This document shows positions 9,446-9,819 of a DNA stretch of 64,000 nt, piece by piece. The stretch is from NCBI RefSeq assembly GCF_022846255.1, contig NZ_AP025682.1, one strand, 5' to 3'. The stretch's first letter is position 1; every line of letters starts with the position of its first letter. Position numbers and translations under genes: made by a program. The notes beneath the pieces were generated by a model. That model searched no databases. It was not told where the DNA came from and saw nothing but the letters and a program-made list of their open reading frames with translations. The stretch comes from Escherichia coli (GTDB taxonomy: Bacteria > Pseudomonadota > Gammaproteobacteria > Enterobacterales > Enterobacteriaceae).

Positions 9446-9490
9446 TTTTTATCCCTCTTGCATACACCGTTGTGGGTACAGTCAGGGAAT

Positions 9491-9506
9491 AGCAAGGGGA
9501 GTGCCA
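9491..9506 (-). promoter_or_regulatory. Sigma-54 (-24/-12) promoter of atoDAEB
   Basis: Minus strand reads TGGCAC-N5-TTGCT, a match to the sigma-54 consensus TGGCAC-N5-TTGCW, about 45 bp upstream of the atoD ATG. Confidence 0.65.
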
Positions 9507-9587
9507 GAATGAGATTATTGGGGGGTGTTATTTAACTAATTGAATAAAAAAGGATAAATTAGATGGGGGTTTATAAGGAGAATGAGC

Positions 9588-9628
9588 GGCTATGCAGAAA
9601 ATTGCGCACTGTGCAAATTTCTGCATAG
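9588..9628. promoter_or_regulatory. AtoC enhancer-binding site (41-bp near-perfect palindrome) upstream of atoDAEB
   Basis: GCTATGCAGAAAATTGCGCACTGTGCAAATTTCTGCATAGC, two about 20-bp inverted half-sites about 90 bp upstream of the sigma-54 element with AT-rich (IHF-like) spacer between; identification as the AtoC site is from recalled literature. Confidence 0.6.
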
Positions 9629-9639
9629 CAAGTTTTGGC

Positions 9640-9819
9640 GTTATACATCCGCCGGATCGATACCGTATTCCTGGAGTTTATACATCAATGCACGGCGACT
9701 GATGCCCAGCATTAATGCAGTGCGGGTTCGGTTTCCTTCTTGTTGTTCCAGCACTTCCATAATGATGCGTTTTTCGACGCGTTTAATTTCCTCTTTTAAA
9801 TTACGCTCACCGACAGGGG
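9640..9819 (-). pseudogene. atoC: atoC 3' fragment (Fis-type HTH DNA-binding domain) separated from the rest of atoC by IS4
   Basis: Minus-strand translation gives ...RVEKRIIMEVLEQQEGNRTRTALMLGISRRALMYKLQEYGIDPADV* ending at TAA 9640-9642; the frame entering from the IS4 junction (…GERNLKEEIK) is offset by one nucleotide from this HTH frame. Confidence 0.8.

Follow-up and report, generated by a model that had tools for sequence, protein, structure and literature searches.

Can atoDAEB still be induced in an Escherichia coli strain in which the control region of the operon looks intact while the gene for its activator, atoC, is interrupted? The earlier note had described this arrangement as an enhancer-dependent promoter orphaned by disruption of its activator, and we examined it in a 64-kb stretch of DNA (the window) that covers the ato locus. 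In K-12, transcription of atoDAEB depends on RpoN and an ATP-hydrolysing activator, AtoC binds its palindrome upon acetoacetate induction, cis elements govern the inducibility of the sigma-54-dependent promoter, and strains deleted for atoSC no longer catabolise short-chain fatty acids (PMC3118216). The elements of the control region in the window were as follows.

9446 to 9639, minus strand: atoC-atoD intergenic control region, read from the end of atoC to the start of atoD
9491 to 9506, minus strand: sigma-54 (-24/-12) promoter of atoDAEB, TGGCACTCCCCTTGCT
9533 to 9545, minus strand: IHF-like site ATTCAATTAGTTA, a weak candidate in the A+T-rich spacer with one mismatch to WATCAANNNNTTR
9589 to 9629, no strand assigned: AtoC enhancer (UAS), an inverted pair of 20-bp half-sites spaced 1 nt apart

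An intact sigma-54 promoter had been placed on the minus strand at 9491-9506, and an exact match to TGGCAC-N5-TTGCW was found there, with GG at -24 and GC at -12 in the spacing of the motif. This was the only match in the window, where 0.18 are expected by chance; at least one match arose in 17 of 100 shuffles of the sequence. The window was also scanned for inverted repeats with arms of at least 18 nt spaced within 60 nt. Three repeats of this size class were detected, and the one at 9589-9629 (arms 9589-9608 and 9610-9629; 20+1+20 nt) showed the highest complementarity (18/20) and the shortest gap. Its arms, GCTATGCAGAAATTTGCACA and GCTATGCAGAAAATTGCGCA, were letter for letter the two AtoC half-sites verified by ChIP and EMSA, located at -184 to -165 and -163 to -144 from atoD (PMC3118216 Table 5), and their distances from the atoD ATG (9445) were those published for K-12. 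The near-perfect 41-bp palindrome reported previously was therefore present, and its assignment to AtoC agreed with the verified sites; its coordinates, given as 9588-9628, were one base off.

Both the promoter and the palindrome were 100% identical to those of K-12 MG1655 and SMS-3-5 by sequence comparison. The atoD 5' leader was the same as that of SMS-3-5 and differed from that of K-12 by one base, and the other substitutions of the control region relative to these two strains lay in the spacer, except for a single base immediately upstream of the palindrome. The spacer measured 82 bp from promoter edge to palindrome edge and was 67% A+T, in line with the A+T-rich spacer described earlier. 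IHF reportedly has a role at the atoDAEB promoter, in work ascribed to Matta et al. of 2007. The IHF-like site at 9533-9545 was conserved in K-12; at one-mismatch stringency, the consensus scan gave 67 matches in the window against 52 expected, which is near chance, and the site is not significant alone. Compared with the K-12 ato locus (Pilalis et al. 2011, PMC3118216; Matta et al. 2007), the window has the same -24/-12 element, both half-sites, the same distance to atoD, and the same atoS-atoC-atoDAEB order, but its atoC is split by IS4 and a few substitutions are found in the non-functional part of the spacer. The features at the split were the following.

9640 to 9819, minus strand: atoC 3' remnant, with native codons 407-461 and the stop codon at 9640-9807 (HTH_8) and codons 403-406 repeated in the duplication copy at 9808-9819
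9808 to 9819, no strand assigned: copy 1 of the target-site duplication, CACCGACAGGGG on the plus strand, a perfect 12-bp repeat
9820 to 11245, minus strand: complete IS4 of 1426 bp, ends TAATGCCGATCAGTTAAGG and TAATGCCAGTCAGTTAAGC, transposase gene codirectional with atoC and atoD
11246 to 11257, no strand assigned: copy 2 of the target-site duplication, CCCCTGTCGGTG on the atoC strand, a perfect 12-bp repeat
11229 to 12464, minus strand: truncated atoC open reading frame, 411 aa, with 406 native residues followed by VMPIS from the IS4 end and a stop codon inside the IS4 terminal repeat

IS4 elements are ~1.4 kb long, with 18-bp imperfect terminal inverted repeats, an 11-13-bp duplication, and a single DDE transposase carrying the IS4 N-terminal domain. 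The element in the window encoded a transposase of 442/448 aa with the Nterm_IS4 and DDE_Tnp_1 domains (Pfam), matched annotated IS4 copies from many genomes at 100% identity, and differed from the K-12 copy by five mismatches. In length (1426 bp), terminal repeats, 12-bp duplication, and 442-aa DDE transposase it was the same as IS4 of the IS4 subgroup of the ISfinder IS4 family, of which insG is the K-12 copy. These results bear out the earlier statement that atoC is interrupted and identify the cause as a complete, canonical IS4 between 12-bp direct repeats. When IS4 and one copy of the duplicate were removed in silico, a flawless atoC open reading frame of 461 codons (1386 nt) was restored, and the restored AtoC differed by one residue from that of K-12 and by one residue from that of SMS-3-5.

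We then compared the domains of the truncated and the intact protein using Pfam. The truncated AtoC retained Response_reg (residues 7-115), Sigma54_activat (145-311), and AAA_lid_14 (317-394), with Walker A at 173, GAFTGA at 220, and Walker B at 243; it thus has the receiver and the GAFTGA-bearing sigma-54 AAA+ domain of an NtrC-family bEBP. HTH_8, the C-terminal Fis-type helix-turn-helix (HTH), lies at 415-454 in intact K-12 AtoC and was absent from the 411-aa product, its coding sequence being stranded at 9640-9807. Judged by its predicted domains, the lesion is a precise loss of the AtoC DNA-binding domain (residues 407-461) and not a null. It also differs in kind from the atoC(Con) alleles, such as I129S in LS5218, which are gain-of-function point mutations giving constitutive expression (PMC5699524). 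Both are natural or laboratory changes of atoC that alter atoDAEB expression, an effect that is predicted in the case of atoC::IS4, but in atoC::IS4 the DNA-binding domain is lost. The remaining genes of the locus were as follows.

12461 to 14287, minus strand: atoS, sensor kinase, full length, 608 codons
8783 to 9445, minus strand: atoD, intact, 220 aa
8133 to 8783, minus strand: atoA, intact, 216 aa
6814 to 8136, minus strand: atoE, intact, 440 aa
5599 to 6783, minus strand: atoB, intact, 394 aa

The earlier note held that atoS is intact and that the structural genes are without decay, and both statements were confirmed. AtoS aligned without gaps to its counterparts, with eight amino acid differences from K-12 and six from SMS-3-5. 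The alignments of AtoD, AtoA, and AtoB to K-12 were also free of gaps, and AtoE was identical to the K-12 protein; across atoDAEB the products showed 0-7 amino acid differences from K-12, with no internal stops. Five residues of the window AtoS (D64N, R77H, V400L, S419R, and C542S) differed from both K-12 and SMS-3-5, and the ratio of amino acid to silent changes in AtoS still resembled purifying selection. For atoS together with the 5' part of atoC, the best match among complete genomes reached only 99.5%.

Because the duplication shows no mismatch, IS4 carries no damage, the atoC reading frame restored by excision is intact, and the structural genes are only 0-7 residues from K-12, a recent insertional inactivation is supported for this lineage. 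The earlier note had argued for a recent loss from the structural genes, and the full-length IS4 and the lesion-free stranded HTH segment point the same way. Two public read sets (L005 and L008) yielded assemblies that matched the window at 100% identity throughout the locus.

What would this lesion do to the operon? In the wild type, sigma-54 RNA polymerase waits at the -24/-12 element until AtoC, phosphorylated by AtoS and activated by acetoacetate, binds the 2 x 20-bp palindrome ~110-150 bp upstream via its C-terminal Fis-type HTH. AtoC oligomerises there and, by ATP hydrolysis, acts across the A+T-rich spacer, which is probably bent by IHF, to open the promoter. In the present strain, a complete IS4 has entered atoC after codon 406, in the linker that joins the AAA+ lid to the HTH, so that only AtoC(1-406)+VMPIS, predicted to be unable to bind the enhancer, can be made; the promoter and enhancer are still perfect but would be without a tethered activator. 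As an AtoC without its HTH would have no hold on the enhancer, we expect the promoter to be closed or nearly so, atoDAEB to respond to induction very poorly or not at all, and the strain to be Ato-negative. This is the orphaned-enhancer reading, which the sequence comparisons support. The explanation as a whole, namely a canonical atoDAEB control region whose activator has been detached by IS4 at a repeatedly hit site, leaving the operon uninducible or nearly so, has in our estimate a probability of about 0.75. Since only the HTH_8 end is removed while the receiver, AAA+ domain, and lid are intact, the loss of induction is likely rather than certain. The Ato-negative phenotype is likewise a reasonable prediction and no more, because some activity, though weak, can be exerted from solution by activators that lack a DNA-binding domain.

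H. pylori FlgR, Chlamydia CtcC/AtoC, and PspF 1-275 are bEBPs without a DNA-binding domain. The truncated AtoC may still be an activator under AtoS control that contacts sigma-54 polymerase from solution; atoDAEB would then be partly inducible, its promoter would not be truly orphaned, and the protein could also cross-activate other sigma-54 promoters. The apparently functional receiver and AAA+ module that it keeps would suit such a role, and bEBPs lacking the DNA-binding domain are able, when highly concentrated, to act from solution (PMC2831303). However, a high protein concentration is generally required for this, and the palindrome in cis is reported to govern the inducibility of the atoDAEB promoter (PMC3118216). 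The likeness to the bEBPs without a DNA-binding domain mentioned generically in PMC2831303 lies in domain content, receiver and AAA+ without HTH; those proteins have evolved or been engineered to need no enhancer, whereas the truncated AtoC is an accidental product with a five-residue, IS-encoded tail. We consider activation from solution unlikely. Alleles of this kind are ready natural versions of AtoC without the DNA-binding domain on which questions of enhancer-independent activation can be addressed.

Low, constitutive, sigma-54-independent expression of atoDAEB could also result from transcription out of IS4, either from the transposase promoter or by read-through from atoSC. The transposase gene does point towards atoD, and a scan found no minus-strand terminator-like site from the transposase stop (9833) to atoD (9445). 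The sole sigma-70-like promoter found by scanning this region was IS4's own, at 11221-11194. On the other hand, the right end of IS4 forms an 11-bp stem, ~390 nt of untranslated sequence precede atoD, and consensus scans, which are weak evidence either way, detected neither an outward promoter from IS4 nor a sigma-70-like promoter between IS4 and atoD. We regard expression from IS4 as very improbable. Returning to the detached activator, the strain and its clone-mates are best annotated as probably unable to induce atoDAEB despite structural genes that look fine. The components themselves are known: the promoter and enhancer are those of K-12, the element is canonical IS4, and the event is an ordinary recent IS knock-out of the DNA-binding domain of a known regulator. 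Its weight for basic biology is small, given a textbook promoter, enhancer, and activator family and the fact that IS knock-outs of regulators are common.

We next asked how often IS4 is found at this site. The two junctions correspond to the k-mers CCCCTGTCGGTG+TAATGCCGATCAG and CCCCTGTCGGTG+TAATGCCAGTCAG. The predicted products carried either the V400 allele of K-12 or the A400 allele of the window and ended in VMPIS or, for the opposite orientation of IS4, in VMPVS. Each of the four combinations (two atoC alleles x two IS4 orientations), the window's own product and the three others predicted for the site, occurred in public assemblies. The exact 411-aa product of the window was present in other assemblies, with flanks ~1% different from those of the window. 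The carrier contigs, from public E. coli assemblies and read sets (loci L002-L009, L015-L028, and L031-L032), had IS4 at the identical junction, in the predicted orientations, and with the same 12-bp duplication. They comprised at least 10 atoC haplotypes, 1-25 nt apart over atoC nucleotides 1-1219, with one variant site only 22 bp from the junction. Two of these haplotypes (H6 and H7) carried IS4 in both orientations, and one of the two was identical in sequence to K-12's intact allele. By contrast, the insertion was absent, in either orientation, from all of the 5,426 complete E. coli genomes of RefSeq, and a full-text search of the papers covered returned no account of IS4 in atoC or of a natural atoC disruption.

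One old atoC::IS4 allele, passed on by descent or by recombination, would account for junctions and a duplication that are identical in all carriers, but we rejected it as having next to no credibility, because one ancestral insertion cannot explain carriers whose haplotypes are as many as 25 synonymous sites apart over 1219 bp, that include a haplotype identical to K-12's intact allele, and that have both orientations even on identical flanking haplotypes, and because its absence from the complete genomes speaks against an old, established allele. From the haplotypes and orientations, IS4 has evidently struck this atoC site independently many times. The absence from 5,426 complete genomes suggests in turn that such events are rare and apparently short-lived. 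Recurrence of IS4 at the exact atoC site is the mildly new element of this locus, and a minor curiosity.

The target sequence itself offers an explanation for the recurrence. A junction query aligned 24-28 nt past the IS end at unrelated IS4 copies. The IS4 sites that were inspected (lacY, the zapB-rraA spacer, a genomic island, and the K-12 copy) had in common an A-rich arm, AAAAA(C/A), which was ACAAAC at the K-12 copy. The arm was located 2-3 nt outside a duplication of 12-13 bp that usually started with C and ended with G. The atoC target, ggcAAAAACag-CCCCTGTCGGTG-agcgtaaTTTaaaa, was a good fit to this pattern on one arm and a partial fit on the other. De Palmenaer et al. described a "spectacular" target-arm specificity for the IS4 subgroup (PMC2266710), and together with the fit of the atoC arm, target preference suffices as an explanation. 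The site thus has the look of an IS4 target that is hit seldom but repeatedly, and the insertion in the window is a simple, young event at an IS4-preferred sequence, with the AAAAAC arm lying 2 nt beyond the 12 bp that were duplicated. In the lacY case (L011 1729-3154; NZ_CM151352.1, a clinical E. coli), IS4 interrupted the gene and was flanked by a 13-bp duplication, and the flank gggAAAAACgcc closely resembled the arm of the atoC target.

It is also conceivable, though we think it quite unlikely, that codons 403-406 are a natural IS4 landing site at which truncation to a receiver-AAA+ protein is selected and not merely tolerated. If true, the advantage of the truncation might be that it shuts off short-chain fatty acid catabolism, that it frees an enhancer-independent sigma-54 activator or antizyme activity, or that it serves as a switch reversible by precise excision. 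Whether tolerated or selected, the carriers form a natural data set on IS4 target choice, with the same 12 bp hit in both orientations and each protein cut precisely between AAA+ and HTH.

Second lesions, in atoS, were observed in some atoC::IS4 carriers (L015, L018, L019, and L020, atoS at 1678-3447; L017, atoS at 1674-3504). In one lineage, codon 590 of the 608 in atoS was a stop codon, and in another the gene was split into open reading frames of 163 aa and 458 aa. These lesions suggest that the two-component system decayed further, whether the IS4 insertion came first or later. In a metagenome-assembled contig (L016 4804-8236), ravA-viaA-like genes instead of atoD followed the IS4 in atoC, an arrangement that reflects a rearrangement mediated by IS4 or else a chimera created at the repeat during assembly.

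As a whole, the window was colinear with K-12 from ~2.268 to 2.328 Mb, with IS4 as the only large insertion. A Shigella source, which the IS had brought to mind, was rejected given this colinearity and the annotation of the exact truncated protein in E. coli assemblies. Between eco and mqo, a unit of ~110 bp at 29279-29387 was apparently present once in the window, whereas K-12 has five tandem copies (L029 36504-36951). Unlike K-12, in which IS5 splits yejO, the window had no IS5 copy at ~43484-43487, and the alignment crossed the K-12 insertion point unbroken.
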